A DNA stretch of 27,920 nt from Chloroflexota bacterium (GTDB lineage: Bacteria > Chloroflexota > Anaerolineae > Aggregatilineales > UBA3940): the NCBI GenBank assembly GCA_011051745.1, contig DRKO01000280.1, positions 1-27,920 on the forward strand, in the 5' to 3' direction. The notes below the pieces were generated by a model. The model made no database searches. It was not told the DNA's origin and saw only the letters and a list, made by a program, of their open reading frames with translations. Position numbers and translations under genes: made by a program. Positions 1,349 to 21,030 of this stretch are shown in pieces. How positions within the stretch are numbered: the stretch's first letter is position 1; every line of letters begins with the position of its first letter.

Positions 1349-2092
1349 TTACCCCGCGATCAGCAACAGGCCGCCGATCGCCAGCAGCACAATAATGATG
1401 CGCTCGAACGTCTCTTTATCAACCCGCTCCGACATCCACTTGCCGATCCACACCCCGGCGGGCACAAGCGGCATCAGCCACGCGATCTGCCACAGGCGGT
1501 TGAAGTCGAACAGGCGGGCGTAGAAGTAGTAGGGCACTTTGATCCAGTTCAGGAGGAAGAAGAAGATCGCCGAGGTGGCGACAAAAACGCGCGGCGTGAC
1601 ATCCTGCATCAGCAGGTAGATGCTGACCGGCGGGCCGCCGGTGTGCGCCAGCGCAGAGGAGAAGCCGGTCACCGTACCGGCCAGCAGGCCGTGCCAGTCT
1701 TTCCCCTCATATTTTAGCGAGCCGAGGATGCGCTTCTCAAAAACCTTGTAAACGGTGAAGATCAGGACGATGATCCCCAGCGCCGTTCGCAGCGTCCCGG
1801 TGGGGGCGTTGGTGATGAACAGCGTGCCAATCGTCACGCCGAGCACCGAGCCGGGGATCAACAGCAGCACCAGACGCCGATCCCAGCGCCGCCAGTGCAG
1901 GGCCACGGCGAAGATATCGGCGAACATCAGAACCGGCAGCACCAGCCCGATCACCTGATCGGCGGGCATCACGAGCGCCATCATGGGCGTTGCCAGCGCC
2001 CCCAGAGACCCGCCCAGCCCCCCTTTTGAAAGGCCGATGAGGAACGCCACAACAGCCGTCATCGCGAAGAAGATGGTCAGGTTGACAGTCAT
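1349..2092 (-). CDS. TSUP (TauE/SafE) family membrane permease/exporter, 247 aa
   Basis: Very hydrophobic, with two-fold internal repeat motifs GLSKGGLGG and GFSSALAHTGGPP. ATG at 2092 (MTVNLTIFF) with AGGA upstream is preferred over the ORF-track start at 2188. Confidence 0.85.
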   Translation of the reverse strand: MTVNLTIFFAMTAVVAFLIGLSKGGLGGSLGALATPMMALVMPADQVIGLVLPVLMFADIFAVALHWRRWDRRLVLLLIPGSVLGVTIGTLFITNAPTGTLRTALGIIVLIFTVYKVFEKRILGSLKYEGKDWHGLLAGTVTGFSSALAHTGGPPVSIYLLMQDVTPRVFVATSAIFFFLLNWIKVPYYFYARLFDFNRLWQIAWLMPLVPAGVWIGKWMSERVDKETFERIIIVLLAIGGLLLIAG

Positions 2093-2183
2093 GGGAGCGA
2101 GCCGATCCTTTCGTGGATGGACAGGGCGGGGGGCGGAGGCACGGCGGCGGGGAGTGTCCCCTGCTTCAGGCCCCTTCCCGACG

Positions 2184-2217
2184 GGCAACGGGGACCGACA
2201 GCGCGGCCCCCGTTACC
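2184..2217 (-). other. 14-bp intergenic stem-loop after the creatininase-family gene
   Basis: Arms 2184-2197 and 2204-2217. Both non-Watson-Crick pairs are G-U on the minus (transcribed) strand. No U-tract follows. Confidence 0.6.
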
Positions 2218-2230
2218 GCATGGCAGCAGT

Positions 2231-3160
2231 TTACAGCACCCGATCCACAAACTCGCGGTTGTGCACCTCGACGGGCACGTTCATCAGTTCGAGCACGCCG
2301 CGTGCCACATGCTCGGAGAGACGGCGGAAGGCTTCCTCGCCCTTCTCTTTTGTCGCGCGGAGCGGGTTCCCGATCACGCCGGTCTCGATGAATTCGTGGT
2401 GATCCATCGGGAAGTGGAAGTACTTATAGCCCTCAAACTCAACGTCGGGCATGCCGTCCTTCTTCTCGAAGGATTTGGGCAGGTATTCGGGAATGTGAGC
2501 TTTGGTGAAATTCGCCCGCTCCATGCGGACCAGCCGCTCGTTCCAGGCCAGGTCCTGCGAGGTCTCCAGCTCGCTGGAGTGCCAGCCGGGCGTTTCCTCC
2601 CACGGGTTCTCCAGCAGGCCTTCAAGGACGCCGACGTAGTTCTCCATGTAGGGCTTGGCGAACCCGATCAGCGCTCCGGTTTCATAGCGCAACTTGCGTA
2701 GCAGGGGGTCAATGACCTTCACGTTGGAGCCGTGGCCGTTGATGAAGATCAGGCGGTTGAAGCCGTGATGGATCAGGCTGCGGCCCACGTCATACAGCAG
2801 GTTGAGCAATGTGGTGCTGCGCACGGTGATCGTCCCCCGACCCCCGCCCGGCGCGTACATGTGCTGCGGCGAGTAGCCCATCCAGATGGGCGGCGTGTGC
2901 AGCACGGCGATCATCTCAGCCACCCGCTTGGCGACCTCCCAGGCGGTGACGGTGTCAGTATAGAGCGGCAGATGCGGCCCGTGCTGCTCCAGGCTCGCCA
3001 TCGGGATCAGGATAACGTCCTTCTCCTTGAGGTACTCCTGGATGTCCATGTAGGTCAGGTCGCCCAAGTCCCAGGAGAGGAACTTCTTGCGAAACTCCTC
3101 GTCGCCCTCGGTCAGGTGCGGCAGGTCGCGGTATTTCTTGTTCCCGTTATCGTCAATCAT
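2231..3160 (-). CDS. Creatininase-family metal-dependent hydrolase, 309 aa
   Basis: Motifs EQHGPHLPLYTD, NGHGSN, HSSELETS and GVIGNP keep the binuclear metal ligands. ATG at 3160 with AGAGGAG upstream, overlapping the previous stop codon. Confidence 0.85.
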   Translation of the reverse strand: MIDDNGNKKYRDLPHLTEGDEEFRKKFLSWDLGDLTYMDIQEYLKEKDVILIPMASLEQHGPHLPLYTDTVTAWEVAKRVAEMIAVLHTPPIWMGYSPQHMYAPGGGRGTITVRSTTLLNLLYDVGRSLIHHGFNRLIFINGHGSNVKVIDPLLRKLRYETGALIGFAKPYMENYVGVLEGLLENPWEETPGWHSSELETSQDLAWNERLVRMERANFTKAHIPEYLPKSFEKKDGMPDVEFEGYKYFHFPMDHHEFIETGVIGNPLRATKEKGEEAFRRLSEHVARGVLELMNVPVEVHNREFVDRVL

Positions 3161-3173
3161 GGTGACCACTCCT

Positions 3174-4400
3174 CTAAAGCGATTCCATCATACTGATGAA
3201 CAGATCGGCCACTTCCCGGCCAAATTCCGGGTCATTCACGTGGCGTTCGAAGGTCCGAACAGGGATATCCTCCCGTATCTCGGAGCGCAGCGTCTCCAGA
3301 AACGCGCGGTCTGCCTCCGGGTCCCAGAAGGGGCCATCCGGCACGTTGGGGATGGAAAGCCCCTGTGTCGGAACGGCGATGATGACCGGGCCTTTCGCCG
3401 GATTGAGCCGCTCGGCGAAGATATGCCCAAGCTGGATCATCTCCTCGCGCGTGGCGCGGACGAGCGTATACTCCGGGTTGTGATCGTAGACGGGGCGACC
3501 CTGAAGCTCCGGCGGGATCGCGCCCGCATGGAAGACGCAGAAATCAATGCAGCCGGGCACGACAACCTGCGGCAGGCCCAGCGCCCCCACGCGCTTCAGG
3601 CGGTCGGGGCCGCCGTCGTGGATGCCACCCGTCAGGGGGTCGTATACCTCGTTGGTGGTGAAATCAATCACGCCGACGAACTGGCCCGCCTCGGCCAGCT
3701 CTTCCATCGCCGGGCCGCCGACGCCGTTCGAGTGGAAGATCACGGCCTCGTACCCGTGCTCGGCCAGCCGTTCTTTCAGCGCCATGACGGCCTTTGTGGT
3801 ATTCCCCAGCATGGTGACGGCCACGTAGCGGTCATCAGGGCCGGGGGGCGGCAGAACGTGGCCGTGCTCCACCATCCCTTTGAGAGCGGCGGCCACGTTA
3901 TCAAAGATCGTGCGGGCGATGGGGTTCAGGCCCAGAATATCCACAATGGAGTGCACCACCATGATGTCGCTGGTTCCGACCAGCGGATCAAAGTAGTGCT
4001 TCCCGGAGGCGATCGGCGACACCAGCACTTTGGGCACGCCAACCGGCAACTGCATCATGGCCGCCGCGCCCATCACCGCGCCTTCGGCCCCGCCCATGCT
4101 GACGATGGCGTCCAGCCTGCCCTGCTCGTAAAGCTCCAGGGTGAGCTTTTTGAGCGCCTCGCGCATCCCTTCGACGGCCTTCCCCCGGCTGCCCGCGTTC
4201 TGCAGGGCCTCGATGGTCGTTCCGCCGTAGCGGGCCGCCTCGGCCCGGCTGATGTCGGGCGTGATGCCGATCGGCTCGCCCAGGATGCCGGAGTCGACTA
4301 CCGTCGTCTCCAGGCCGAGCGCCTGTAGCTGATCGCGCAGGTATGCGATCTCCGGCCCTTTGGTGTCGAGGGTTCCGATTACGACAACGTTCTTACCCAT
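3174..4400 (-). CDS. Tm-1-like ATP-binding domain protein (UPF0261), 408 aa
   Basis: Motifs VVVIGTLDTKGPE, LPVGVPKVLVS, SIVDILGLN, GVIDFTTNEV, HNPEYTLVRAT and PFWDPEAD. ATG at 4400 with GGAGG upstream. Confidence 0.85.
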   Translation of the reverse strand: MGKNVVVIGTLDTKGPEIAYLRDQLQALGLETTVVDSGILGEPIGITPDISRAEAARYGGTTIEALQNAGSRGKAVEGMREALKKLTLELYEQGRLDAIVSMGGAEGAVMGAAAMMQLPVGVPKVLVSPIASGKHYFDPLVGTSDIMVVHSIVDILGLNPIARTIFDNVAAALKGMVEHGHVLPPPGPDDRYVAVTMLGNTTKAVMALKERLAEHGYEAVIFHSNGVGGPAMEELAEAGQFVGVIDFTTNEVYDPLTGGIHDGGPDRLKRVGALGLPQVVVPGCIDFCVFHAGAIPPELQGRPVYDHNPEYTLVRATREEMIQLGHIFAERLNPAKGPVIIAVPTQGLSIPNVPDGPFWDPEADRAFLETLRSEIREDIPVRTFERHVNDPEFGREVADLFISMMESL

Positions 4401-4421
4401 ACAGCAACCTCCGGGCAACTG

Positions 4422-4481
4422 AGAGGGGGGCTGCGAAGTAAAGGCTCCGGTGTGCCGGACTACTTCGAGTTGCCCCCCTCT
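4422..4481. repeat. Nested 60-bp inverted repeat
   Basis: AGAGGGGGGC/GCCCCCCTCT (10 bp perfect) encloses CGAAGTA/TACTTCG and TCCGG/CCGGA. Confidence 0.7.
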
Positions 4482-4498
4482 GACGGTGAAAATGGGGA

Positions 4499-5386
4499 TT
4501 AGCTGATCAACGGAAGGAGCGTCTTGGCGGTTTCCTCAACCAGCCAGCTATAGAACTCCTCCGTCAGCAGGCTGGAGCCGTGCTCCTCGATGAACTTCTT
4601 CTGTTCGGGTGAGATGTCTACCGGGTTGGTCTCGATGGCGTTGGGGTAGGGGTTGGCGGGCGTGCGGTCAATGGGGGCGACGAACTCAACGGTCAGCGCA
4701 CCATCATAGCCGATCACCTTCAGCGTGCCGACCAGCTTCAGCCAGTCCCAGTGCCCCATGCCACAGGCCATGCGGTTGGTATCCGCGACGTGGAAGTCCA
4801 CCAGACGGCCCTTTGCGCTCAGGATGGATTCGTAGGGGTCGGCCTCTTCGATGTTCAGGTGGAAGGCGTCCAGGCAGACGCCGCAGTCATCGGCGACGGC
4901 CTCCGCCAGCGCCAGCGCCTGCGCCGCCCGTGAGCAGAAGTAGGTCTCAAAGCGGTTGATCGGCTCGATGGCAAGCTGGATACCCTCTTTCTTGCCCCAG
5001 TCGTAGCATTCCTTGAGGCTGTCAACCGCCCACTCCCACTCTTCCTCCGGCGTGCCATCGGGCACGATCTTGCCGACGGTGGCCGGAACGATGGTCATGA
5101 TCTCGCCTTCCAGTTCCTTGACCATCGTGATGCAGTCCTTGACGTACTGCACCGACTTCTCGCGCTGGGCCTGATCCTTGGCGACCAGATTACGATCGCC
5201 CAGCATCAGCGTTACCGATCCCCAGCACCGGATGCCGTTGTCCTTGAGGATTTTACGGACTTCCTTTGTGTCGTAGGTGTACGGCTCACCGCTGATCTCG
5301 ATGCTCTCGTAGCCATACTTTGCCAGCCGCCTGACGGTTACTTCGATTGGCTCCGCCCTCATCCAGTTGTGCATTGACAGATGCAT
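4499..5386 (-). CDS. Sugar (phosphate) isomerase/epimerase, xylose-isomerase-like TIM barrel (ketose 3-epimerase/TM0416-like), 295 aa
   Basis: Catalytic and metal motifs EPINRFE, LDAFHLNIEE, FHVADTNR and GYDGALTVEF. SD AAAGGAGG upstream. Confidence 0.85.
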   Translation of the reverse strand: MHLSMHNWMRAEPIEVTVRRLAKYGYESIEISGEPYTYDTKEVRKILKDNGIRCWGSVTLMLGDRNLVAKDQAQREKSVQYVKDCITMVKELEGEIMTIVPATVGKIVPDGTPEEEWEWAVDSLKECYDWGKKEGIQLAIEPINRFETYFCSRAAQALALAEAVADDCGVCLDAFHLNIEEADPYESILSAKGRLVDFHVADTNRMACGMGHWDWLKLVGTLKVIGYDGALTVEFVAPIDRTPANPYPNAIETNPVDISPEQKKFIEEHGSSLLTEEFYSWLVEETAKTLLPLIS

Positions 5387-5458
5387 TTGGTCCCTCCTTT
5401 GGGCAAAAACTACACAGAAACCGTATTCACGCAGAACGCGGGATCGCGTCCCTGCCAG

Positions 5459-5498
5459 GTAAGCCCCTCTGGCGGCGGGGCGAACCGCCGGAGCTTAC
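5459..5498. other. Intergenic stem-loop after the Fe-S protein gene
   Basis: GTAAGC/GCTTAC outer stem and TCTGGCGG/CCGCCGGA inner stem. Confidence 0.5.
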
Positions 5499-5505
5499 TC
5501 ACGTC

Positions 5506-6603
5506 CTAAGCCAGATGATCGGCCAGCAGCTCGTACAACCCCTGCACGCGCAGGCCGAACCGTTCCGCGTGCCGGGCGAGGTGACTCAACGAACCGGCGT
5601 CCTCGGTGACGACCAGCCGTGCCCCGACCCCGGCGGCGTCTGCCAGCCGCGAATACGTCAGGTGGCGGGCGATGTGCGGTTCGGTGAACTGGAGGGCGAC
5701 GTTGCCGCAGGGGTGCGCTCGCTCGCGCCGCCAGAATAGCTCCCGCGCCGGGGCGGGCAGCACGGCCTCCAGAAGCGCACGGGGGGCGTCGTAGCGCGTC
5801 GTGACGCGCACCGAGTGGGTGGGGTCTACGTAGGCGCAGGGTGTCCCGTCGGCGGCCTTCCGAAAGGCCAGAGCGCCTTCTCTGAGCCGCTCCGCCAGAA
5901 AGGTGACCACCTCCTCCAGAACTACGCCGGACGGCCATTCGATCCCCAGCCGCTCATCGTACAACTGGCTGAAGGTGAAGAAATCACCCGGCCCCAGCAC
6001 CAGCAGGCGGGTTGCGCCGGTGGCCTCAAGCTCGGAGAGCGTCTCTCCGGCCAGATCGCGGGCCGTCGAGGGGAAGCCCAGCGAACTTGCCAGATAGCCG
6101 TTGTTGCGCCCCACGCCGATCAGAACCGGCTCAACGCCCACCGCTTTGAGCAGTTTCAGGGCCGCCTCCAGCGCGTCCGGCCAGAGGTAACGCGCCTCGT
6201 CTCCTACAAAGAGGGCGACTTCCCCCTGCCCCTCGACGGGGGCGGGGGACTGCTGTTCGTAGGGGTTTCCCCACTCCTTCAGGGCGCGGTGAGTCTCGTA
6301 CACCACCGCCGGGGCCAGGTCCCGCGCGGCGACATCTGCCCGTGCCGCCGCGATGGCCTCCGGCAGGGGTTGATCAGTGACGCAGTGGGCGCGGCAGGTT
6401 CCGCAATCGGAGCAGCTATACAGGGCCTGCACGGTCTCCTCGTCCCACGCCAGCAGGCCGCGCCCGACCGAGGCGATCATCAGCGCCCAGCCGTGCGGCG
6501 TCAGCGACTCCCTGCGGGTGACATGCCCCACCGGGCAGACATGGCGGCACATCAGGCAGTAACGGCAGTTCTCAGTCGTCAGGATGACGTTTTCAAGTGG
6601 CAT
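5506..6603 (-). CDS. (Fe-S)-binding protein: 2x[4Fe-4S] dicluster plus degenerate CCG (GlpC/HdrD-like) domains, 365 aa
   Basis: CRYCLMCRHVCP and CSDCGTCRAHC at the N-terminus. The remainder has the spacing of two CCG domains but almost no Cys. ATG at 6603 with GGAAGGA upstream; the ORF-track start at 6825 overlaps the upstream gene. Confidence 0.8.
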   Translation of the reverse strand: MPLENVILTTENCRYCLMCRHVCPVGHVTRRESLTPHGWALMIASVGRGLLAWDEETVQALYSCSDCGTCRAHCVTDQPLPEAIAAARADVAARDLAPAVVYETHRALKEWGNPYEQQSPAPVEGQGEVALFVGDEARYLWPDALEAALKLLKAVGVEPVLIGVGRNNGYLASSLGFPSTARDLAGETLSELEATGATRLLVLGPGDFFTFSQLYDERLGIEWPSGVVLEEVVTFLAERLREGALAFRKAADGTPCAYVDPTHSVRVTTRYDAPRALLEAVLPAPARELFWRRERAHPCGNVALQFTEPHIARHLTYSRLADAAGVGARLVVTEDAGSLSHLARHAERFGLRVQGLYELLADHLA

Positions 6604-6635
6604 GGTGTCCTTCCGCTTTCGTGCCGGGGCCTGTA

Positions 6636-8075
6636 TTAGAAGCCAAACCCGACTTTGCCGGGGTTCATGATCCCGTTGGGATCGATCATCCGCTTGAGCC
6701 TCAGCAGGAAGGGCCAGGCCGAGCCGTACTGCCTGCGCATGTAGCGGGCCAGCTTCAGCCCCACCCCGTGATGCTCGTTGATCATGCCCCCGTTTGCCAT
6801 CACGGCCTGCATGGCGGCGTTCCACACCCGATTGTGCAGCCGCAACGCCTCGCGGGCGTCCGCCGGCGGCTCCTCGATGATGAAACGCGAATACAGCATC
6901 ACGCCCCAGTGGAACCAGTGCGAGAAATGGCCGATGAAGCGCACGTTCCAGTCGGCGAAGCCCTCCTCGACGGCCTTCTTCTCAGCGTAGTAGACGGCTT
7001 CGATCCTGTCGTAGGTGGTGACGGTTTCGGTTGTGCCGTACATCCAGGGCAGCTTGAGGTTCTGCGGCGGGTAGTAGAAGTCGTAGCGGTGCGCCCACCA
7101 CGCCTCGCCCGGCTCGCGCCCCAGATCACGCGCCCCCAGCCGGGCGCAAATCTCCATCGCCTTCTGCTCCTGAAGGGCGGCGATGTCCGGATCGCCATCG
7201 AAGCCGAGCACCATGTACGCGCCGTCAAAGTCGTAGCCGAGGATTTTCCGAACGCGGGTCAGCGTGGAGGCCGGATCGTACAGCCGGATGACGAAGGGAT
7301 CGAGGCGGCGGGTCATCATCAGGCGGCCTGCTTCCAGCGCGTTGTGCAGGTCGTCGAACAGCACCGCCCGCAACAGGCGGGCTTCCGGCAGGTAGTCCAC
7401 CTGCATGGTCGCCTCGGTGATGATGCCGAACGTCCCCTCCGCCCCCAGAAACAGGCGGAAGAAGTCCGGGCCGGAGGCGTGCTGCGGAACCGGCGGGGTG
7501 TGGATGATCTCGCCGGTGGGCAACACAACTTCCATGCTGAGCACCAGGTCTTCGGCTTTGCCGTACTTGGTGCTGATCGTCCCCGTCCCGCGCGGAGCCA
7601 GATAGCCGCCCAGCGTGGCGCAGTTGGCGGAGGCCGGATAGTGGGGCAGCGTCAGCCCCTTTTCGTTGAGCGCCCACTCAAGCTGTGTCCCGATGATCCC
7701 GGCCTGCGCGGTGACCGTCAGGGATTTCTCGTCAATCTCGATGATCTTATCCAGCCGCTTTGTGTCCACCAGAATGCCGCCAAAGATCGGCAGCGCTCCG
7801 CCCTGCGTGCCCGATCCGCCGCCCCAGGGGACAACCGGAATACGATACTTGTTGGCGATCTCCATGATCTCGGAGATTTCTTCCGCCGAGGCGGGGTGGA
7901 CGATGTAGTCCGGCGTCCTTAACGGCCTGCCGCGATCCAGCCACATCTGCGGCATCCACGACCAATCGGTCGAGTAGACCAGCTTATCGCTCTCCTCAAC
8001 CGAGATGAAGGCCGGGCCGACGATCTCCTCCAGTTCGCTGCGGATCATTTCAGCCTGGAACAGGGCACGCTTCAC
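6636..8075 (-). CDS. FAD-binding oxidoreductase, VAO/PCMH fold, alkyl-DHAP-synthase (ADPS/YgcU)-like clade, 479 aa
   Basis: Motifs PWGGGSGTQGG, HYPAS, TLGGYLA, GAEGTFGIIT and C-terminal EHHGVG...DPNGIMNPGK. GTG start with AAGGAG upstream. Confidence 0.85.
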   Translation of the reverse strand: MKRALFQAEMIRSELEEIVGPAFISVEESDKLVYSTDWSWMPQMWLDRGRPLRTPDYIVHPASAEEISEIMEIANKYRIPVVPWGGGSGTQGGALPIFGGILVDTKRLDKIIEIDEKSLTVTAQAGIIGTQLEWALNEKGLTLPHYPASANCATLGGYLAPRGTGTISTKYGKAEDLVLSMEVVLPTGEIIHTPPVPQHASGPDFFRLFLGAEGTFGIITEATMQVDYLPEARLLRAVLFDDLHNALEAGRLMMTRRLDPFVIRLYDPASTLTRVRKILGYDFDGAYMVLGFDGDPDIAALQEQKAMEICARLGARDLGREPGEAWWAHRYDFYYPPQNLKLPWMYGTTETVTTYDRIEAVYYAEKKAVEEGFADWNVRFIGHFSHWFHWGVMLYSRFIIEEPPADAREALRLHNRVWNAAMQAVMANGGMINEHHGVGLKLARYMRRQYGSAWPFLLRLKRMIDPNGIMNPGKVGFGF

Positions 8076-8100
8076 AGCCGACTCCTTGTGTATTGTCTCT

Positions 8101-8117: not shown

Positions 8118-8118
8118 C

Positions 8119-9594
8119 CTACTCCTGCGGCACGTCGGGATGCGGGGGCATCCAGTAATCCCCTTCGCCCGTCTGGGCCTCGATGACGCGGCTCAGCACA
8201 ACCACCGCCTCGCTGATGACGCGCTCCGGCTGGCTCACAAAGCAGATGCGCAGGTGATCGTTAGAACCGGGGGCCACCAGGAATGCGTCGCCAGGCGTAA
8301 ACGCGAACCCGCGCCGCAGCACCTCGCGGGAGACAACGGTCGCATCAATGCCGGGTGGGAGAGTGACCCAGCAAGCGAATCCGCCTCTGGGATGAGTCCA
8401 GGTGACCCCCGGCGGCATATGCCATCGGAGATCGCGCAGGAGCCGGTCGCGGCGTTCCCGGTAGATGGGGATGACCCGCCGCAGATGGCGTCTGAGCGCG
8501 CCGCTCTGGATGAAGTTGGCGACCGCTCGCTGCACAAAGGGCGGCCCGCAGAAATCAGCCGCGCGGCGCAGCGATACCAGTTGCCGGTGCAACGGCTCCG
8601 GCGCGACGACGTATCCCACCCGCAGGCCGGGCATCATCACTTTGGACATGCTGCTGATGTAGATCACCTGCTCCGCTTCGTCCAGAGATTTCAGCGCCGG
8701 GGCCGGGTCGCCGTCATAGGCAAGCTGGCCGGATGAGTCGTCCTCCACCAGAATCAGGCTGTAACGGCGGGCCAGCGCCAGCAACGCCCTGCGCCGCTCC
8801 GGGGACATCAGCGTGCCAGTGGGGTGGTGGAAGTTGGGGACGGTGTGGAAGAAGCGGGGGCGGTACTGCACGATGATCCGCTCCAGCTCATCCAGACGCG
8901 GCCCGTGTTCATCCAGCGGCACGTCAACGGCCCGCACGTGATAGGTGCGCAGGCTGTTGATCAGGCCGAGATGAGTGGGCCGCTCGACGACCACCACGTC
9001 GCCGGGGCGGGTGAGGGCCTGCGTGATGAGCGAGATTCCCTGCGTGACGCCGGAGGTCACCAGAATGTTATCCGGCATGGCCTCAACGCCGCGCTCGCGC
9101 AGCAGGTCTGCCAGAGCGGTTCGGAGGGCAGGATCGCCCTGCGGCCAGCTATAGCGCAGGAGGGCGGCACTTTCGGCGCGGAGCCTGTGCAGTTCGCCCC
9201 AGAACTCACCCGCCGGGAACAGTTCGGGGTCCGGTTCAGCGTATGCAAACGAGCGCACGATGGCAATCTGGTTGATCTTCGGCTGGTCATCCAGCACACT
9301 GTCCGGCGTCGAGGAATGCCCGACGGAGTCGATCAGCGCCTCTGGCCGGGCCGTGCGGGCGACGAATGTCCCTTTCCCGATAACCGTCTCGATCCAGCCC
9401 TGCGCCCGCAGTTCATCATAGGCCGTCTGCGCTGTCAGGCGCGTTACGCCGAGTTGCTCGGCCATCTGCCGGATGGGGGGGAGCTTGGCTCCCACAGGCA
9501 AGCGGCCCTCCCGTATCTGTTGCCTGATCTGCGCGGCGATCTGCCGGTATAGAGGCTGTGGAGCCTCTCGGTCAACACTGAATGGAAACGGCAC
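8119..9594 (-). CDS. MocR/GabR-family transcriptional regulator (GntR wHTH + PLP-dependent aminotransferase-like domain), 491 aa
   Basis: N-terminal PLYRQIA...LPPIRQMAEQLGVTRLT...GKGTFV. C-terminal PNFHHPTG, EDD, and SSMSKVMMPGLRVGY with the PLP lysine. Confidence 0.92.
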   Translation of the reverse strand: MPFPFSVDREAPQPLYRQIAAQIRQQIREGRLPVGAKLPPIRQMAEQLGVTRLTAQTAYDELRAQGWIETVIGKGTFVARTARPEALIDSVGHSSTPDSVLDDQPKINQIAIVRSFAYAEPDPELFPAGEFWGELHRLRAESAALLRYSWPQGDPALRTALADLLRERGVEAMPDNILVTSGVTQGISLITQALTRPGDVVVVERPTHLGLINSLRTYHVRAVDVPLDEHGPRLDELERIIVQYRPRFFHTVPNFHHPTGTLMSPERRRALLALARRYSLILVEDDSSGQLAYDGDPAPALKSLDEAEQVIYISSMSKVMMPGLRVGYVVAPEPLHRQLVSLRRAADFCGPPFVQRAVANFIQSGALRRHLRRVIPIYRERRDRLLRDLRWHMPPGVTWTHPRGGFACWVTLPPGIDATVVSREVLRRGFAFTPGDAFLVAPGSNDHLRICFVSQPERVISEAVVVLSRVIEAQTGEGDYWMPPHPDVPQE

Positions 9595-9790: not shown

Positions 9791-10825
9791 TCAGCCTCCC
9801 GTCAGTGCGCTCAGGATCAGCCAGTCGAGCTCCTCGTAGTCGCGGGCGGCGATCAGTTCGTTGATCCTCTCCCGATCCAGTGAGCGCACCACCTCGACCA
9901 GCCGGAGGAACATGTGCAGGCTGTTCCGCAGGTGCTTGGTCGCCAGTTCTGCCGGCTGGGTGCGGAGGGCCTTCACGTCCAGCCCGACCATCCCCTTCTC
10001 GTAGAAGCGGTTCTCATCCAGCACGCGCACCTGATTGAAGGCCCGTCGCAGGTCTACCGAGCCGAAGGAGCGATCCTGATCGAACTTCAGGCCGTTCTGA
10101 TCGTTCAGGTGGACGCTCCAGAGCTTATCGAAGGCCAGCGCGAAGCTCATCTCGTCCGCCGGATCAAGCCCGGCCAGAACGGCGTGCGCGGTCTCGACCA
10201 GCGCCCCCACACGCGAAGGGTCGCTGGCCTGAAAACCGAGCGCCAGCGCGTGCCCGATGGTCGGGATGTACGCCAGGTCCATCGGCTCGTTGGGCTTGGG
10301 CTCAATGGCGATGCGAAGCTGCGGGTCGTATTCCAGCAGCGTGTTGACGGCCTCCAGAAGGCGATGGGTGGCCTGCACGGCGTCTTTGGCCTCGCGCATA
10401 TAGGTTCCTTCACGGGCCAGCCAGAGCACCATCAGGTTTGTGCCCAGCTCACGCCCGATGTCGGCGGCCTTTTTGGAGCGCTCGATGGCGTACTCACGCG
10501 CTTTCGGGTCGTTGGAGGTAAACGCCCCGTCAATCGTCATCGGGTGTTCCCACAGGCGCGGCGCGACAAACTCAGCCACCAGCCCGTGATCCTCCAGCCT
10601 GCGGCGCATCGCCCGGGCCTGCTTCGCGATCTCTGAGGCCGAAAGATCGTCAAGGTCAGGCACGGCGTCGTCGTCGTGGAACTGGACGGCGTCAAAGCCC
10701 AGATCGTTGAAGACCTTCAGCTTCTCGTCAAAGGTCAGGGAGGGACGCACGGGCGGCCCGAAGGGATCGGCCCCCTCGTGGATATTCCACGGCCCGAACG
10801 AAAAGCGATACCCGTATTTCTCCAT
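9791..10825 (-). CDS. Divergent xylose-isomerase-family protein, substrate unknown, 344 aa
   Basis: Motifs FSFGPWN, FHDDD, DGAFTSND, WLAREG, IEPKPNEP, ETAH, HLNDQ and FDQD align with XylA. ATG at 10825 with AAGGAGG upstream. Confidence 0.85.
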   Translation of the reverse strand: MEKYGYRFSFGPWNIHEGADPFGPPVRPSLTFDEKLKVFNDLGFDAVQFHDDDAVPDLDDLSASEIAKQARAMRRRLEDHGLVAEFVAPRLWEHPMTIDGAFTSNDPKAREYAIERSKKAADIGRELGTNLMVLWLAREGTYMREAKDAVQATHRLLEAVNTLLEYDPQLRIAIEPKPNEPMDLAYIPTIGHALALGFQASDPSRVGALVETAHAVLAGLDPADEMSFALAFDKLWSVHLNDQNGLKFDQDRSFGSVDLRRAFNQVRVLDENRFYEKGMVGLDVKALRTQPAELATKHLRNSLHMFLRLVEVVRSLDRERINELIAARDYEELDWLILSALTGG

Positions 10826-10914
10826 CGTTGCCTCCTTGTGGAGCGCGGGCACAGACCCGGCGGGAGCCTCCCGCGCTCTGGAAGTGTGTTCAGATTTCTT
10901 TCAGCGCACCGCCA

Positions 10915-12081
10915 TCACAGGGCAACCGTCTGCCCTGTGGCCTGAGACTCAAGCGCGGCGGTAAAGAGATCGTGGCTGCGTGCCGCCTCCTCCGGCGTGG
11001 CGCAGTAGAAGGGCTGCTGCATCCCCTCGCGCCCGTTGACCAGCTCATCGCAGAAGGCGGCCCACATCTGGAGGATGGCGTCTGAGAGGCCAAACTCGAA
11101 GATGCCGCCCGTGATGGTCGGATAGGCCGACTTATAGCCGATGTCCTCCACGTGCCAGGCCTGCGGCCCGCCCGGCGTGTACGGCAGATAGCGCAGCGTG
11201 CGGGGGTACTTGGTGCTGAACTCCGCGCTGAACTCCGTGCCGAGCACCCGGATAAACCAGGTGTCCATCTCGCCGGGGGCGATGCGTTTGGTGGAGAGCA
11301 CCATCGGGAATTGCTGTCCCCCCGCTTCCACCTCGCAGGCCAGAATGGCGTTATCCCACGTCTCGCAGGGAACCATGCGGCCCTCTTTGTCCGGTCGCTC
11401 GGTCATGATGTTGGAGAGCAGGGCACGCACGTTCTGCGGGAACCAGCCCGCGCGGAAGGGGACATGCACGACGTGCATTCCCAGATCGCCCATGCAGCCG
11501 TACTCGCCGTTGATCTCGATCATCCGCTTCCAGTTGATCGGCTTCTGCGGGTTCAGGTCGCTGCTGTGCCAGAACCCGGCTTCCACCTCGATGATCTTCC
11601 CGAAACGCCCTTCCATGATCCACTGCGTGATGCGGTATGCGCCGGGGTAGAAGGGGAATTCGGACGAGCAACGCACCAGCACATCGGGGTTGGCCTCGAT
11701 GGCGGCGTTGATCTGCTCGTTGGCCGCTTTATCTATCCCGAAAGGCTTCTCACCGAGCAGGTGCTTGCCCGCCTCGATGATGTCCACGTAAAACTGAGCG
11801 TGCAGATTGTGCGGGATGGCGCAGTAGATCGCGTCAATCTCCGGATCGGCCAGCAATTCGTGGTAATCGGTCGTCGCCAGCCGGACCGACTCGAAGTTGT
11901 CGGTGTACCAGTTCATCACCTGTGGGTTGACATCGCAGACGGCGACGATGCGCGGCAAGAACCCCGGCCCCTGCCCCGTTTTCGGGTCGGAGAGGTGCGC
12001 CCAGCGAGCGACGGCGCTGGCAAACTCGCGCCCCATCAGCCCGCAGCCGATGATCCCAAAGTCTATGATTTTCTGTGCCAT
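10915..12081 (-). CDS. Gfo/Idh/MocA-family NAD(P)-dependent oxidoreductase, 388 aa
   Basis: Rossmann motif GIIGCGLMG, GEKP, and GDLGMH (D-x-x-x-H). SD GGAGGAG upstream. Confidence 0.9.
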   Translation of the reverse strand: MAQKIIDFGIIGCGLMGREFASAVARWAHLSDPKTGQGPGFLPRIVAVCDVNPQVMNWYTDNFESVRLATTDYHELLADPEIDAIYCAIPHNLHAQFYVDIIEAGKHLLGEKPFGIDKAANEQINAAIEANPDVLVRCSSEFPFYPGAYRITQWIMEGRFGKIIEVEAGFWHSSDLNPQKPINWKRMIEINGEYGCMGDLGMHVVHVPFRAGWFPQNVRALLSNIMTERPDKEGRMVPCETWDNAILACEVEAGGQQFPMVLSTKRIAPGEMDTWFIRVLGTEFSAEFSTKYPRTLRYLPYTPGGPQAWHVEDIGYKSAYPTITGGIFEFGLSDAILQMWAAFCDELVNGREGMQQPFYCATPEEAARSHDLFTAALESQATGQTVAL

Positions 12082-12098
12082 GAGAGTCTCTCCTCCGC

Positions 12099-12938
12099 TC
12101 AGGCCGAGGAGCGCAGCAGCTTCAGGGCCTCTTCCGGTGTCGCCCCTTCGTGGACAATCGCCATAAAGGCGCGGGTGATCGCCGTCGGATTCGGATGCTG
12201 GATGACGTTGCGCCCGTAGACGATCCCGCGTGCCCCCTGCTGCATCAGGTCGTAGGTGCGTTGCAGGATTTCCTCCTCGGAGGCCTTGCTGCCCCCGCGC
12301 ACCAGCACCGGCACATCACCGGCCACCTCGATGACGGTGTGGTACACGCTCACATCGTCGGTCGGGTCGGCCTTGATCACGTCGGCCCCCAGTTCCACCG
12401 CCTGACGCACCAGCGGGATGATTTTGTCGGGGTCGCCGTCCACCATATAGCCCCCGGCCACCTCGTTGGGCTGCATCACCAGCGGCTCGATCATGAGCGG
12501 CATCCCGTAGCGCTCACATTCCGGCTTCAGCCGGTTGATGTTCTGGATGCACTGGTGGTACACCTCCGGCTGGCCGGGGATGCGAAACAGGTTGACGACC
12601 ACACAGGCCGCGTCGAGGCGGATGGCCTGCTCGACCGGATTCTCGATCAACTCGCTGAAAAGATGGTGGGGCAGTTCCCGCCCGTAGACGTTGGCGATGT
12701 CGGTTCGCAGGACAAGGGACGGCTTCTCCTTGCCCGGCACGCCCTGCAGGATCGGGGCCTGACCGGGGCTGAGCTGGATGGCGTCCGGGTTGGCCTCGAC
12801 GACGGCGGCGATCACCTTCCGCATGTCCTCGATGCCGGTCAGGAAGCGCCGTTCGTTGAAGAAGCCGTGATCAATGGCAACATCAAAACACTTCCCGTCA
12901 GCAGCCAGCAGGCGGTTAAGCCGTGCGCTAACGTTCAT
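12099..12938 (-). CDS. Class I (Schiff-base) aldolase, DhnA/DeoC/LacD superfamily, 279 aa
   Basis: Motifs VAIDHG, LRTD, IEPLV, GADVIKAD (Schiff-base Lys), VLVRGG and GIVYGRNV. Confidence 0.85.
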   Translation of the reverse strand: MNVSARLNRLLAADGKCFDVAIDHGFFNERRFLTGIEDMRKVIAAVVEANPDAIQLSPGQAPILQGVPGKEKPSLVLRTDIANVYGRELPHHLFSELIENPVEQAIRLDAACVVVNLFRIPGQPEVYHQCIQNINRLKPECERYGMPLMIEPLVMQPNEVAGGYMVDGDPDKIIPLVRQAVELGADVIKADPTDDVSVYHTVIEVAGDVPVLVRGGSKASEEEILQRTYDLMQQGARGIVYGRNVIQHPNPTAITRAFMAIVHEGATPEEALKLLRSSA

Positions 12939-12966
12939 TTTCGTTCCGTCCTCTCTCGTATTCCGG

Positions 12967-13920
12967 CTACGATTTCACCGGCGTGGAGTCCATAAATTCA
13001 AGCGTTTCTGAAAGCGAGCGGACGCCGCCCGCCGCGCCGACACCCGTCACGCACAGCGCACCGACGGCGTTGGCAAAGCGGGCTGTCTTCTCCAGCGGCC
13101 AGCCCTGCCACACCCCGGCGATGAACCCGGCGGCGAAGGCATCCCCCGCGCCGGTCGCGTCCACCACCTCCACCTCGAAGGCAGGGAGCCGCACCGTCTG
13201 GCCCTCCTGCGTCATCACAAGGCAGCCCTCCGCGCCCATCTTCAGCCCGACGGTTCCCACCCCCTCATCCAGCAGGGCGCGGGCGACCTCTGCCGGGTCT
13301 TCCAGACCGGTTAACGCCTGTGCCTCTACCAGACTGGGGACGAAATAATCGGTGTGGGGCAGGCAGGGCTTCAGCGTCTTCATCCAGCGGCCGGTGTCGT
13401 CCCAGACGGTATCCAGAAAGGTTGTCACGCCTGCCGCCTGTGCCTCGCGCAGCAGTTCGGCGGTCGGCTGGCCGTCAAGGCCGGGCATCACCAGCGCCCC
13501 GGCCACATGCAGGATGGAAGCCCCCCGGACGATCTCCCGGTCCACATCATCCAGCGTCAGGCGGGCGTTGGCCCCGATGTAGTGTACAAAACGCCGCTCG
13601 CCGTCCGGGTCCACCATGACCATCGTGGCCGAAGTCCCCGTTTCGGGGTCGCGCTTCACGCCCTCTGTTCCGATGCCGCGACCGGCCAGGGCCTCCAGCA
13701 GAAAATCGCCGAAGGGATCGTCCCCGACCTTGCCGATCACCTCAACCGGCAGACCCAGCCGCGCCAGTCCGGTCGCCGAGTTGACGGCGCAGCCGCCGGT
13801 GTGGAGACTCATCTCATCCACCAGAACCAGCCGCCCCGGCTCAGGGAAGGCCCGCAGGGGTCGCCCCACCACGTCGGCGACCATGATCCCCAGGCAGACG
13901 ATGGGCTTGCGTTCGTTCAT
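12967..13920 (-). CDS. PfkB/ribokinase-family carbohydrate kinase, 317 aa
   Basis: Motifs GGCAVNSATGLARLG, GKVGDDPFG and VDATGAGDAFAAG. Confidence 0.92.
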   Translation of the reverse strand: MNERKPIVCLGIMVADVVGRPLRAFPEPGRLVLVDEMSLHTGGCAVNSATGLARLGLPVEVIGKVGDDPFGDFLLEALAGRGIGTEGVKRDPETGTSATMVMVDPDGERRFVHYIGANARLTLDDVDREIVRGASILHVAGALVMPGLDGQPTAELLREAQAAGVTTFLDTVWDDTGRWMKTLKPCLPHTDYFVPSLVEAQALTGLEDPAEVARALLDEGVGTVGLKMGAEGCLVMTQEGQTVRLPAFEVEVVDATGAGDAFAAGFIAGVWQGWPLEKTARFANAVGALCVTGVGAAGGVRSLSETLEFMDSTPVKS

Positions 13921-17216: not shown

Positions 17217-17672
17217 TTAAGGCTCCCCCTCGCCGCTGCCAACGGATATGCCGCTCAGGTCCTGCCGGGGGCGTGCTCCCTTCGGGATGATGTGGCTCCA
17301 CATGATGTAGGCGATGGTCGAGATGAGCAGGACGTGGAAGCCGACCCGGTAGAGAATGAACGCCCAGGGCTGGAACATACCGACCACCCCGGAAACAATC
17401 CCCGCGATGATGATCGCCTCGATGATGCGGTAGAGGCGGTGGGAAACGTTGTTGTTGAGCACACTGGCGACCAGCCAGATGACCGTGATGTAGAACAGCA
17501 CGATCGCGACGAAGATCAGGATGAAGGGGATGGCGTTAAGGAGGACGTTCTCCGCGAACTTCTCTTCAGGGATGTTGGCGTGGAGAATCGGCCCGATGAA
17601 GAGACCGGCAACCAGCAGGATCACTCCCGTGATGGGGAGCCCGATGGGGACACGGGGACGTATTTTCGCCAT
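17217..17672 (-). CDS. Hypothetical integral membrane protein, about 4 TM helices, 151 aa
   Basis: Four hydrophobic stretches. ATG at 17672 with GAGGA upstream; alternative TTG start at 17693. Confidence 0.75.
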   Translation of the reverse strand: MAKIRPRVPIGLPITGVILLVAGLFIGPILHANIPEEKFAENVLLNAIPFILIFVAIVLFYITVIWLVASVLNNNVSHRLYRIIEAIIIAGIVSGVVGMFQPWAFILYRVGFHVLLISTIAYIMWSHIIPKGARPRQDLSGISVGSGEGEP

Positions 17673-17761
17673 GATTTTCTGTTCCTCAACCAAAAGTTAC
17701 CCGAGACGTTTACCCGGCGTGCGCCTGGCCGATCCGGGGCTTTCTGAACTGCGGGTGGGAT

Positions 17762-17784
17762 GGGGGAGGGCAACACCCTCCCCC
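17762..17784. other. GC stem-loop after the Gfo/Idh/MocA gene
   Basis: GGGGGAGGG-CAACA-CCCTCCCCC, a perfect 9-bp stem. Confidence 0.55.
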
Positions 17785-17803
17785 TGCCCTTTCTGCCCGC
17801 TGC

Positions 17804-19003
17804 CTAGTATTTGATATCAACCTGCTTCCGCGCTTCCGCCGATTCGAGGATCGCATCGCAGATCACGGCTGCCCGGTAGCCGTCCTCAAAGGTCGCGCCG
17901 TAGGGAGCAACGTCTTTATCGTTCACGATGCAGTCCAGGAAGTGGGTGATCTCATGCACGAAGGTGTGCTCCCACCCGATGATGTGACCGTGCGGCCACC
18001 AGTTCTCCCACCAGGGGTGGTAGCTCTCCGTGATCAGCGCGTCGTGGAAGCCCTGAGTCTCCTTCGGCTCCTCGCCCACCCAGAAGACTTCCAGTTCGTT
18101 CATCCGCTCCAGATTGAAGCGGATGCTGCCCTTCTCGGCGTTGATCTCGAAGCAGTTGTAGTTCTTCCGACCGGCGGCGAAGCGCGTGGACTCCAGCGTG
18201 CCGATGGCGCCGTTCTCGAACTCAATCGCCGCCACGAAGGCATCGTCCACGTCCACCTTGCCAACCCCGCTGCCATCGGGCAGGGGACGCTCCTCAATGA
18301 AGGTGCGGGTCATGGCCGCCACGCTCTTGATGCCACCAACGAGGAAGTGGGCCAGGTCAATGATGTGTGCGCCCAGGTCGCCGAGCGCACCGCTGCCCGC
18401 CACTTTCTTGTCCAGCCGCCATATCTTGGGCGTGCCGTAGTGGGGCATGATCCACTCCTGCAGATACACCGCGCGGAAGTGGTAAATCTGCCCCAGCGCG
18501 CCGCTATCAATCAGGTTCCTGATCTGGCGCACAGCCGGGACGAAGCGGTAGTTGAAGGCCACCATGTGCTTGACGCCCGCCTTCTGCACGGCATCGAGCA
18601 TCTCTTTCGCCTCTGCGGCTGAACGGGCGAGCGGCTTCTCGCACAGGACGTGCTTCCCGGCCTGGGCCGCCAGAATGGACGGCTCGGCGTGGGTGTCGTT
18701 CGGGCCGCCGTTGTCGAAAAGCTGGACCTCCTCGTCCTCAAGCATCTTGTGCCAGTCGGTGTAGTATCTGGCATAGCCGTAGCGGCGGGCTGCCTCGGCG
18801 ACGGCTTCTTCGTTCCGCCCACAGATGGCAACCAGCCTGGGGATGGCCGGGGGCGGGTACATCATGTAGGGAATCTTCTTGAAGGCGTTGGTGTGGGCTT
18901 TCCCCATGAAGGCGTACCCCAGCATCCCGACGCCGATCTCAGGAATTTCTCCGCCGGCCCTGGCTCCGGCCATCGCCGTGAACCCGGTTTCTTTCTCACT
19001 CAT
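17804..19003 (-). CDS. Gfo/Idh/MocA oxidoreductase, levoglucosan-dehydrogenase/glycoside 3-dehydrogenase-like, 399 aa
   Basis: Motifs GYAFMGKAH, CEKPLAR, VAFNYR, YLQEW, AGSGALGDLGAH, VDVDD and TRFAAGRKNY. ATG at 19003 with GGAGG upstream. Confidence 0.88.
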   Translation of the reverse strand: MSEKETGFTAMAGARAGGEIPEIGVGMLGYAFMGKAHTNAFKKIPYMMYPPPAIPRLVAICGRNEEAVAEAARRYGYARYYTDWHKMLEDEEVQLFDNGGPNDTHAEPSILAAQAGKHVLCEKPLARSAAEAKEMLDAVQKAGVKHMVAFNYRFVPAVRQIRNLIDSGALGQIYHFRAVYLQEWIMPHYGTPKIWRLDKKVAGSGALGDLGAHIIDLAHFLVGGIKSVAAMTRTFIEERPLPDGSGVGKVDVDDAFVAAIEFENGAIGTLESTRFAAGRKNYNCFEINAEKGSIRFNLERMNELEVFWVGEEPKETQGFHDALITESYHPWWENWWPHGHIIGWEHTFVHEITHFLDCIVNDKDVAPYGATFEDGYRAAVICDAILESAEARKQVDIKY

Positions 19004-19109
19004 GAGGCCCTCCAAACTCTACACAGACAGTCAGCCACTCAATCGGGGCAGGCGGGGCGGGGAAGACGCCCGCCCCCAGCCTGCTCAGGTAGCGCGGATA
19101 AGCGCCCGC

Positions 19110-20114
19110 TCACTCTTCGGCGGCGAAGGCGGCGTCGAACGCAACCGCCGAGGGGGTGAAGTCCTGCTTCCGGATCATCTGCAGGGCTTCGGGAGCGCCC
19201 CACTCGCGATCCATGCCCGTATCCTCCCACTCGATTGAGAGCGGGCCGTCGTAGCCGACGCGGTTAAGGGCGCGGATCAGCTTGTCCCAGTTCACATCGC
19301 CCCGCCCCGGCGAGACGAAGTCCCACCCGCGACGGTGGTCGCCGAAGTCAAGGTGTGAGGAGAGGATGCTGTTGCGCCCGGTGAGCTGCACCCGCGAGTC
19401 CTTCACGTGGACGTGCCAGATGCGATCTCCGAACTCGTTGATGAACTCAACCGGATCAACAAACTGGTGGATGAAGTGGCTGGGGTCAAAGTTGAAGCCG
19501 AAAGCGGGATGATGGTTGATCGCCTCCAGCGCACGGTGGGCGGTGATGATGTCATAGGCGATCTCGGTCGGGTGCACCTCCAGCCCGAACTTGATGCCGT
19601 TCTCCTGGAACACATCCATGATCGGCGTCCAGCGGGCGGCGAAGTCCTCATAGCCCTTGTTGATGTCATCCTGCGTGGTGGGCGGGAAGAAGTACAGGTT
19701 CTTCCACACGCTGCTGCCGGTGAAGCCGTTGACGACCTTCACGCCGAACTTCCTGGCGGCAATGGCGGTGTTCTTCATCTCCTCGGCGGCACGCTGGCGC
19801 ACGCCTTCCGGATCGCCGTCGCCCCAGATGCGATCGGGCAGGATGCGGCGGTGGCGCTCATCGATCGGGTCATCGCAGACGCACTGCCCGACCAGATGGG
19901 TGCTGATGGCGAAGCACTTGAGATTGTACTTGTTCAGGATGTCCCAGCGGCTCTGGACGTAGCTATCATCTTCCAGGGCTTTATCCACCTCGAAGTGGTC
20001 ACCCCAGCAGGCCAGCTCCAGGCCATCGAATCCCCATTCGCTGGCCTTTTTCGCCAGGTCCTCCAGAGTCAGGTCAGCCCATTGTCCCGTAAACAGAGTA
20101 ACCGGTCGTCCCAT
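19110..20114 (-). CDS. Xylose-isomerase-like TIM barrel (IolE / keto-sugar hydratase-eliminase-like), 334 aa
   Basis: Motifs [34 protein letters not shown] and SIEWED. SD AAAGGAG upstream. Confidence 0.85.
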
Positions 20115-20149: not shown

Positions 20150-20183
20150 AAAAAAGCTCTGCTTTATGGATATAAAGAGAGCT
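20150..20183 (-). terminator. Intrinsic-terminator-like hairpin with U-tract, overlapping the ketose 3-epimerase stop codon
   Basis: Minus strand AGCTCT-CTTTAT-atcc-ATAAAG-c-AGAGC-TTTTTT. Confidence 0.6.
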
Positions 20184-21030
20184 ACGCTAAAAGTTGCTTC
20201 AGGAACTTCAGCCCATCCTCTGCCAGAGCGTCCTGGCTGGGAGCGAGCGAGCGCCAGATGGCCGCCGCGCGGGCAATGCTCTTGACCTTGGCGGTGAACG
20301 ATTCGATCACGACCGGGCCGTCGTAGTTGATGTCCTTCAACGCCTGAGCGACATCCTCCCAGGGCACATGCCCAGAGCCCGGCGCACCGCGATCGTTCTC
20401 ACAGGCGTGCACATGGCGCAGACGCGGGCCGGCGGCGCGGATCGCATCCCCGATGGATTTTTCTTCGATGTTCATGTGGAACGTGTCCAGCATGATCTGG
20501 CAGGATGGGTGATTGACCCTGTCAATGACCTCAAGGGCCTGCTCCGCCAGATTGATGAAGCTGGTCTCAAAGCGGTTGAGCGGCTCCAGACAGAGCACAA
20601 CGCCGTGCTCGCCGGCATAGTCGGCCAGCCTGCTGAGCTGCTCGACCAGCAGATCGGTGTCGCGTGCCCGCTCCTCCGGTGTGGCCTGCCAGGTGCGGCC
20701 AACCGCCGAGTAGAGCGGCCCGACCAGATTCGTCGCCCCGATCGTCTGCGCGGCCTCGATGCAGCCCCGGACGTAGTTCATGCCGTTTTCCCGGATCGAC
20801 TCGTCAGGGTGGATCAGGTCGCGGTCCGGCCCCATCGCGGCGCAGACGCTCACCCCCAGCCCGTGCTCCCGGATGATCTCCGCGCCGCGTGCGTGATCCA
20901 GATCGTCCAGACTTTCGAGGGGGACTTCGATCCAGTCGAACCCCATTCCGGCCACCTTTGGAGCCAGCTTCTCAAGCTCCGCAGTGGTAAGCGGCGAGGT
21001 CCAAACCCAGGTGTTCACCCCGAATCTCAT
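20182..21030 (-). CDS. D-tagatose/D-psicose/L-ribulose 3-epimerase-family protein, 282 aa
   Basis: Motifs EPLNRFETS, LDTFHMNIEE, HACENDRG and VIESF, i.e. the E/D/H/E metal set of ketose 3-epimerases. Confidence 0.88.
   Translation of the reverse strand: MRFGVNTWVWTSPLTTAELEKLAPKVAGMGFDWIEVPLESLDDLDHARGAEIIREHGLGVSVCAAMGPDRDLIHPDESIRENGMNYVRGCIEAAQTIGATNLVGPLYSAVGRTWQATPEERARDTDLLVEQLSRLADYAGEHGVVLCLEPLNRFETSFINLAEQALEVIDRVNHPSCQIMLDTFHMNIEEKSIGDAIRAAGPRLRHVHACENDRGAPGSGHVPWEDVAQALKDINYDGPVVIESFTAKVKSIARAAAIWRSLAPSQDALAEDGLKFLKQLLA

Follow-up and report, generated by a model that had tools for sequence, protein, structure and literature searches.

The window analysed here covers positions 1 to 27,920 (forward strand) of contig DRKO01000280.1 of a Chloroflexota bacterium (assembly GCA_011051745.1, class Anaerolineae), whose interval 2231-5386 encodes a creatininase-fold hydrolase, a UPF0261 protein and an epimerase of the triosephosphate isomerase (TIM) barrel type. 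We propose, with a probability of roughly one half, that these genes belong to a conserved and hitherto unstudied catabolic operon, centred on a kinase-hydrolase pair, for the oxidative breakdown of a compound derived from a sugar. The initial annotation of the interval, made from the sequence alone, had considered the hydrolase and the epimerase and had read them as an echo of the IolN/IolO inositol route of Thermotoga maritima. The interval holds three genes, not two, with a complete UPF0261 gene, passed over at that time, lying between the other two. Every gene in the window portion around 2231-5386 is on the minus strand, and the interval forms the downstream (3') end of a five-gene operon, which begins with a dehydrogenase linked to flavin adenine dinucleotide (FAD) and an iron-sulphur (Fe-S) subunit. 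The domains of the window genes were called with Pfam and NCBIfam models at curated equivalog cut-offs (ORF, open reading frame):

6636..8075, minus strand: FAD-linked oxidoreductase of the alkyl-dihydroxyacetonephosphate (DHAP)-synthase-like branch (FAD_binding_4 + FAD-oxidase_C)
5506..6603, minus strand: Fe-S subunit (Fer4_8 + Fer4_17)
4499..5386, minus strand: ketose-3-epimerase-like (xylose-isomerase-like) TIM barrel (PF01261)
3174..4400 (ORF to 4418), minus strand: UPF0261/Tm-1-like protein, probable ATP-dependent kinase (PF06792 + PF23189; NF002674 439 bits, above the cut-off)
2231..3160 (ORF to 3169), minus strand: creatininase-fold binuclear metallohydrolase of a distinct conserved subfamily (PF02633 195.6 bits)

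The module and its kinase-hydrolase core

A scan of one genome per species yielded 335 loci encoding close relatives of the hydrolase, and the neighbourhoods of 80 of them were compared by ORF clustering within 8-kb flanks. These 80 loci come from Chloroflexota (63), Rhodothermota (13), Bacteroidota (2), Zixiibacteriota (1) and Deinococcota (1), and repeatedly show the order FAD, Fe-S, (TIM), UPF0261, hydrolase, several phyla sharing the same genes in the same order at 75-88% identity. Relative to the window proteins, the median identity is ~80% for the hydrolase, the kinase and the flavoprotein, whichever the phylum, while the Fe-S protein (45-68%) and the epimerase (61-91%) are less uniform. 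The operon always lies among sugar-type genes, i.e. those for GFO dehydrogenases, other TIM barrels, PfkB/FGGY kinases, DeoC aldolases and LarA-like racemases. The epimerase is kept least strictly of all the members: it was not found within the 8-kb flanks of seven Rhodothermota/Bacteroidota loci, and is inverted and located downstream in five more. Furthermore, on the megaplasmids of Thermus thermophilus only the hydrolase-kinase pair is kept (46% and 39% identity, respectively), in reversed gene order, and thus the kinase and the hydrolase are the constant core, around which the epimerase and the type of dehydrogenase are exchangeable.

After the Thermus pair come a class II aldolase-family gene (109 bits on the OtnC model, under the cut-off) and a TctCBA transporter of the tripartite tricarboxylate transporter (TTT) family, a carboxylate-type system. 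Divergent from the pair are genes for a GntR regulator, a Zn-dependent dehydrogenase of the medium-chain dehydrogenase/reductase (MDR) type (Tdh 245 bits, IolM 225 bits, both under the cut-off), a CBS protein and an unrelated TIM barrel. As the Thermus pair is accompanied by this MDR enzyme, the dehydrogenase slot is exchangeable; the initial annotation had supposed as much in placing the FAD/Fe-S pair in the slot of the Zn-dehydrogenase IolM, and the operon indeed carries the pair where a second dehydrogenase would be needed. The Thermus locus in strain TF19 (plasmid AP031324.1, 178928-187974) adjoins the nar operon in a host that is cultivable and genetically tractable, and in strain AA1-1 the UPF0261 gene is truncated by a transposase.

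The first catalytic activity for UPF0261 was reported in 2025, when MarK of Novosphingobium aromaticivorans was described as a stand-alone ATP-to-ADP kinase that acts on aromatic ketones and releases a stable phospho-product (PMC12624787). The window protein scores 203 bits against MarK (9mpy) and 209 bits against tomato Tm-1, and shares with them the two-domain UPF0261 fold, the ATP-site Lys (in DTK) and Gly and His residues of the acceptor site. It retains counterparts of MarK G195, H219, F283 and H304, so that both domains, the ATP-site Lys and the acceptor-site residues His219 and His304 of the family are present, and the protein is probably an ATP-dependent kinase. Unlike MarK, it has a Pro at the position of the ketone-binding His348, it has no carboxylase or haloacid dehalogenase (HAD) phosphatase as a partner, and it is found in a sugar-gene context, not one of aromatic catabolism. 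The idea that the acetovanillone phosphatase acting after MarK (HpeD/AcvF) might belong to the creatininase family was rejected, since it is a NagD-like HAD phosphatase (PMC9618137). Loci L003, L015, L017, L028, L031, L042 and L065 encode another UPF0261 paralogue (37-41% identity) a few genes beyond the downstream end of the module, often straight after TauE; at some of these loci a conserved 276-residue protein (cluster 33) comes after it.

The closest solved relative of the flavoprotein is the Dictyostelium alkyl-DHAP synthase (ADPS; 2uuu, 202 bits), which comes ahead of D-lactate dehydrogenase (140 bits). The window protein shares with ADPS (2uuu, 4bby) the FAD_binding_4 and FAD-oxidase_C domains and the EHHGVG motif; it differs in that the long N-terminal extension of ADPS is lacking and in that its Fe-S partner implies redox turnover. 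In the latter protein, eight cysteines (Cys 13, 16, 19, 23, 64, 67, 70 and 74) would serve two [4Fe-4S] clusters, followed by a CCG-like domain in which the typical cysteines are lost and just two further Cys occur. This subunit resembles the GlcF/GlpC-like partners of GlcD/GlcF-type two-subunit dehydrogenases, from which it differs by that loss. Its start is placed near 6603 on the basis of its relatives, which have a median length of 368 residues; the longest ORF (5506-6825) would reach 190 nucleotides into the 3' end of the FAD gene.

Taken together, a route can be sketched in which the flavoprotein would oxidize a sugar-derived hydroxy-ketone or hydroxy-acid and pass the electrons to the Fe-S subunit, and the creatininase-fold enzyme would then hydrolytically open the resulting dicarbonyl or ring compound, either by cleaving a C-C bond of a beta-dicarbonyl as IolN does or by cleaving a ring ester or amide. 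The epimerase would invert the carbon adjacent to the keto group, and the UPF0261 kinase would phosphorylate the product, or else the substrate of the hydrolase, for a neighbouring aldolase to split. The order of these steps is a guess, and the analysis does not single out a cyclitol or cyclic diketone as the substrate. The proposal of an oxidative sugar operon draws on the fact that UPF0261 is a proven kinase family whose ATP-site Lys and acceptor-site His are kept in the window protein, and on the affinity of the FAD protein to ADPS, an enzyme that acts on a phosphorylated ketone.

Several points nevertheless weigh against this proposal. A literature search found no biochemical or genetic data for any member of the module. 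To our knowledge, the only characterized UPF0261 kinase uses aromatic ketones rather than sugars, and we know of a single precedent for C-C cleavage in the creatininase family, which otherwise consists mostly of amidohydrolases. ADPS itself is not a redox enzyme, and the CCG cysteines are lost in the Fe-S subunit. Moreover, a near-constant identity of 80% across phyla is unusual for an ordinary catabolic enzyme, and might instead mean that the proteins act as a tightly bound complex whose chemistry is of another kind.

The hydrolase and the epimerase compared with IolN and IolO

Translation of the hydrolase likely starts at the ATG at 3160, which gives a protein of 309 residues, compared with 308 in its relatives. 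Its PF02633 match, its fold and the ligands of its binuclear site place it in the creatininase superfamily. The residues E58, H60, D69, H143, H194 and E199 (309-residue numbering) are invariant or nearly so in 92 family members, and the same six ligand/catalytic columns are also kept in the IolN, CrnA and MftE rows; the earlier remark that the enzyme retains all its metal ligands is thus borne out. An AlphaFold2 model built from the 92-row alignment has a mean predicted local distance difference test (pLDDT) score of 94.4, and the best Foldseek match to it is the creatininase 1q3k, with a template modelling (TM) score of 0.80. CrnA (1j2t, 1q3k) is hence the closest solved fold and has the same binuclear site; however, the window protein is only ~27% identical to it, has extra N-terminal and internal segments (309 vs 260 residues), carries a Ser at the position of CrnA Glu122, and has NGHGSN where CrnA has NGHYEN.

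None of the equivalog models for characterized members of the superfamily fits the hydrolase: it scores 113 bits on CrnA (TIGR04448, cut-off 235), 96.6 on MftE (TIGR03964, cut-off 172) and 90.8 on the model for the 3-dehydro-scyllo-inosose hydrolase IolN (NCBIfam NF041098, cut-off 245), and is no nearer to IolN than to CrnA or MftE. In a tree of 115 rows that included these three enzymes, the window protein and its syntenic relatives formed a 33-row clade with a support of 100 in the Shimodaira-Hasegawa-like approximate likelihood ratio test (SH-aLRT), which excludes the IolN clade (SH-aLRT 100), the CrnA row and the MftE row. With 25-29% identity to IolN orthologues, a score of 91 against a cut-off of 245 bits and a separate clade, an identity as IolN was rejected, in agreement with the initial view that the protein is not a close IolN orthologue. 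Like IolN of T. maritima, it has the creatininase fold with the same invariant E, H, D, H, H and E columns, and is encoded in a sugar-type catabolic cluster with an adjoining dehydrogenase and a TIM-barrel epimerase; unlike IolN, it is partnered by a UPF0261 kinase and a FAD/Fe-S pair, not by IolM and IolG.

Three arginines of the hydrolase (R127, R155 and R302) are specific to its clade. The identity of its relatives to the window protein is unusually flat, and their change slow for a catabolic enzyme (77-88% within Chloroflexota and 77-82% between phyla). These relatives bear the database label 'creatinine amidohydrolase'; a protein atlas lookup of the hydrolase returned generic creatininase clusters only, and the longer hits in a search of representative proteins were tandem creatininase duplications or uninformative. 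Three apparent hydrolase-UPF0261 fusions (P0276, P0277 and P0279) were set aside as probable frameshift artefacts, being singletons with truncated domains.

The epimerase is nearer to IolO in one motif than over its whole length. The C-terminal motif of the window protein reads DFHVADTNRMACGMGHWDWLKLVGTLKVIGYDG, and in the comparison of IolO motifs FHVADTNRMACGMGH; the FHVADTNR quoted in the initial annotation is present in it, and so is the H..ENDR pattern in the second epimerase of the window, at 20182, which reads HVHACENDR. Eight IolO orthologues that pass the cut-off show H[VF]HVADSNRW.PG.GH..F, while D-psicose-3-epimerase-like rows show H.H.CENDRG.PG.G. As the module epimerases read FHVAD(T/S/N)NR..CG.G, and the window gene has the IolO-type 'ADxNR' version, the initial view that its motif is closer to that of TM0416 holds locally. 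The likeness to IolO (TM0416, 2zvr) thus comprises the TIM-barrel family, the metal and catalytic residues and the HVAD(S/T)NR...G.GH motif; on the other hand, the window epimerase is only 29-34% identical to IolO orthologues and belongs to a separate, long-stemmed clade. Its motifs EPINRFE, DAFHLNIEE, FHVADTNR and TVEF align with the catalytic and ligand motifs of D-tagatose 3-epimerase (DTE), and the catalytic set is complete, comprising what we take to be, after the Pseudomonas cichorii enzyme, the metal/catalytic Glu, Asp, His and Glu and the O1-O3-binding Glu, His and Arg.

On the model for the 5-keto-L-gluconate epimerase IolO (NF041099) the window protein scores 133.7 bits against a cut-off of 300, less than the epimerase at 20182 (151 vs 134 bits), and on the D-psicose 3-epimerase (DPE) model (NF051856) it scores 114 bits, again against 300; OtnI gives 44 bits. 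Among solved structures, the P. cichorii DTE (98.6 bits) outranks TM0416 (82 bits). Orthology to DPE was rejected on its score, and identity as IolO on its score and on the position of the protein outside the IolO clade. The epimerase tree contains three fully supported clades, namely IolO (100/98), the module epimerases on a long stem, and a D-psicose-3-epimerase-like clade that includes the 20182 protein, so the window epimerase represents a third lineage beside IolO and the D-psicose/D-tagatose 3-epimerases. The maximum-likelihood tree joins the module epimerases to the DPE clade with a support of 81/51 only, and a tree constrained to group them with IolO is just 0.99 log-likelihood units worse, the grouping not being rejected (approximately unbiased (AU) test, p 0.22).

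The IolN model does work within the phylum, matching at 310-544 bits in 8 of 301 Chloroflexota genomes. In one genome of the same class (G076), IolM (525 bits), IolN (310 bits) and IolO (340 bits) lie side by side, all above the cut-off. The neighbours of this Thermotoga-type trio (L108, G076:C1:857000-874000, genes at 2181-12816) are a LacI regulator, another Zn-dehydrogenase and a GlcD-like FAD protein accompanied by EtfB and EtfA, the last three making up an FAD/electron transfer flavoprotein (ETF) trio next to the inositol genes. In the window, no protein exceeds the IolN or IolO cut-off, and domain scans of its called genes turned up no zinc-type (MDR) dehydrogenase domain. The genome to which the window belongs (89.65% complete) contains no IolN, IolO or IolD over the cut-off and no IolB; given the lack of the latter two, the classical inositol route was not found there.

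Alternative explanations and implications

The reading closest to the initial annotation is a cyclitol route parallel to that of Thermotoga, in which a GFO dehydrogenase and then the FAD/Fe-S pair, in the place of IolM, would oxidize a cyclitol twice, whereupon the creatininase-fold enzyme would play the part of IolN by opening the cyclic 1,3-diketone, and the epimerase that of IolO by acting on the resulting keto-acid. We regard it as unlikely, though worth keeping in view, and it reads as an analogy of kinds of enzyme, not of orthologues. The Thermotoga parallel stands in part, for the hydrolase and the epimerase share superfamilies with IolN and IolO, the epimerase has the IolO-type HVADxNR motif and the AU test (p 0.22) leaves room for a sister position to IolO, 18 relatives have genes for a GFO dehydrogenase and an IolE-like TIM barrel immediately upstream, the MDR dehydrogenase of Thermus shows a sub-threshold similarity to IolM (225 bits), and the classical inositol route was not found in the same genome (no IolD over the cut-off and no IolB). 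In addition, LguG, a 5-keto-L-gluconate 4-epimerase, is only 35% identical to IolO (PMC12632266), so that distance in sequence does not exclude this activity for the window epimerase. The parallel fails in that no IolN or IolO orthologues are present, the hydrolase being no nearer IolN than CrnA or MftE, and in that the invariant UPF0261 kinase, which it ignored, is left without a role. Moreover, the epimerase was not detected in the 8-kb flanks of seven loci and has an inverted position downstream in five more, uptake in the Thermus version relies on a carboxylate-type TTT system with no cyclitol genes there, and the true IolMNO cluster of the same class looks quite different. That the pair is conserved, either gene order being found, even where all other partners have changed, could also mean that the kinase and the hydrolase make up a two-component ATP-dependent ring-opening hydrolase with a logic like that of 5-oxoprolinase, the kinase phosphorylating a stable lactam, lactone or enol oxygen and the creatininase-fold enzyme hydrolysing the activated ring. 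Both proteins are ~80% identical across phyla, as expected of interacting subunits, the creatininase fold is that of cyclic-amide hydrolases, and a MocR regulator, a type that senses amines, lies upstream in this genome. MarK, however, works on its own and its phospho-product is set free in stable form (PMC12624787), the surrounding genes are sugar genes and not amide or amino-acid genes, the apparent fusions of the two proteins are singletons with truncated domains and probably frameshift artefacts, and conservation of the module does not extend to the MocR gene. On balance such a hydrolase seems rather improbable, and a similarly low likelihood attaches to the wider form in which the two components might cleave C-C bonds as well as open rings and the ADPS-like flavoprotein would now be a true dehydrogenase, which would amount to a widespread and so far overlooked route for some abundant compound of sugar origin in Chloroflexota, Rhodothermota and Deinococcota.

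An acid-sugar route of the Otn kind is somewhat harder still to credit. Here a dehydrogenase would make a 2-oxo acid, a TIM barrel would isomerize or epimerize it, UPF0261 would replace the DUF1537 kinase and an aldolase or decarboxylase would finish the route, with the creatininase-fold enzyme as a lactonase. It would suit the Thermus cluster, with its TTT transporter, dehydrogenase, TIM barrel, kinase and class II aldolase-family protein (OtnC 109 bits, sub-cut-off), and the genes for LarA-like 2-hydroxyacid racemases/epimerases that follow the module in 29 loci; GlcD-family flavoproteins, too, typically oxidize 2-hydroxyacids. Yet the window epimerase reaches just 44 bits on the OtnI model, the flavoprotein is ADPS-like and not GlcD-like, a class II aldolase is missing from the conserved module itself, and no lactonase is known in the creatininase family. 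Finally, it is very improbable that the hydrolase is an ordinary creatininase or amidase with unrelated neighbours, as its database name 'creatinine amidohydrolase' would have it, considering its sub-threshold score on the creatininase model (113 bits, cut-off 235), the Ser at the position of CrnA Glu122, and the strict synteny with four other genes across phyla.

At least 335 species-level genomes carry the module, and its proteins hardly differ from one phylum to the next. It unites three poorly understood groups, namely UPF0261, the ADPS-like flavoproteins of bacteria and a creatininase subfamily that has no assigned role; its elucidation would give a function to all three and correct the widespread 'creatinine amidohydrolase' label in the databases, and would probably show how abundant Chloroflexota of wastewater and sediment use a common carbon source. 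For annotation, the names IolN and IolO should not be transferred to the hydrolase and epimerase genes of the module.

Flanking genes and larger versions of the cluster

The other genes of interest in the window are as follows:

1349..2188, minus strand: TauE/TSUP membrane transporter (PF01925), directly downstream of the module and near it in 25 related loci
8119..9594, minus strand: MocR-type regulator (GntR + aminotransferase-fold), directly upstream of the module
9791..13920, minus strand: cassette of XylA-like isomerase, GFO, DeoC-family aldolase and PfkB kinase, which abuts the FAD gene directly in other relatives
17217..20114, minus strand: small membrane protein, GFO dehydrogenase and IolE-like TIM barrel (57%, 80% and 62% identity to neighbour clusters 9, 8 and 5, respectively)
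20182..21030, minus strand: second epimerase, in the D-psicose-3-epimerase-like clade of the tree (DPE 208 bits, IolO 151 bits)

No MocR gene was detected near the module in the 80 related loci (E <= 1e-10, at least half of the query covered), and the regulator is thus local to this genome and outside the conserved module. It scores 359 bits against the PdxR equivalog cut-off of 320, yet it heads a sugar-type operon. Further upstream, beyond this gene, sugar-type cassettes and an ATP-binding cassette (ABC) importer are encoded. A scan for promoters and terminators gave nothing informative.

Orthologues of the trio at 17217..20114 lie immediately upstream of the FAD gene in 18 relatives, and an alternative found upstream in relatives consists of FGGY, PfkB and XylA-like genes. 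Downstream, LarA-like racemase genes occur in 29 loci, and other frequent neighbours include tandem DeoC aldolases, an aldehyde:ferredoxin oxidoreductase and TauE, as well as ThuA in Rhodothermota. A large version of the cluster is present in L013, L015, L024, L026, L032, L042 and L045, with the order FGGY, PfkB, XylA-like, FAD, Fe-S, TIM, UPF0261, hydrolase, (TIM333), LarA-like, two DeoC, tungsten-type aldehyde:ferredoxin oxidoreductase and TauE. This arrangement might conceivably follow a sulfo-sugar-like logic, by analogy, with an isomerase, a kinase, an aldolase, the oxidation of an aldehyde and export by TauE.

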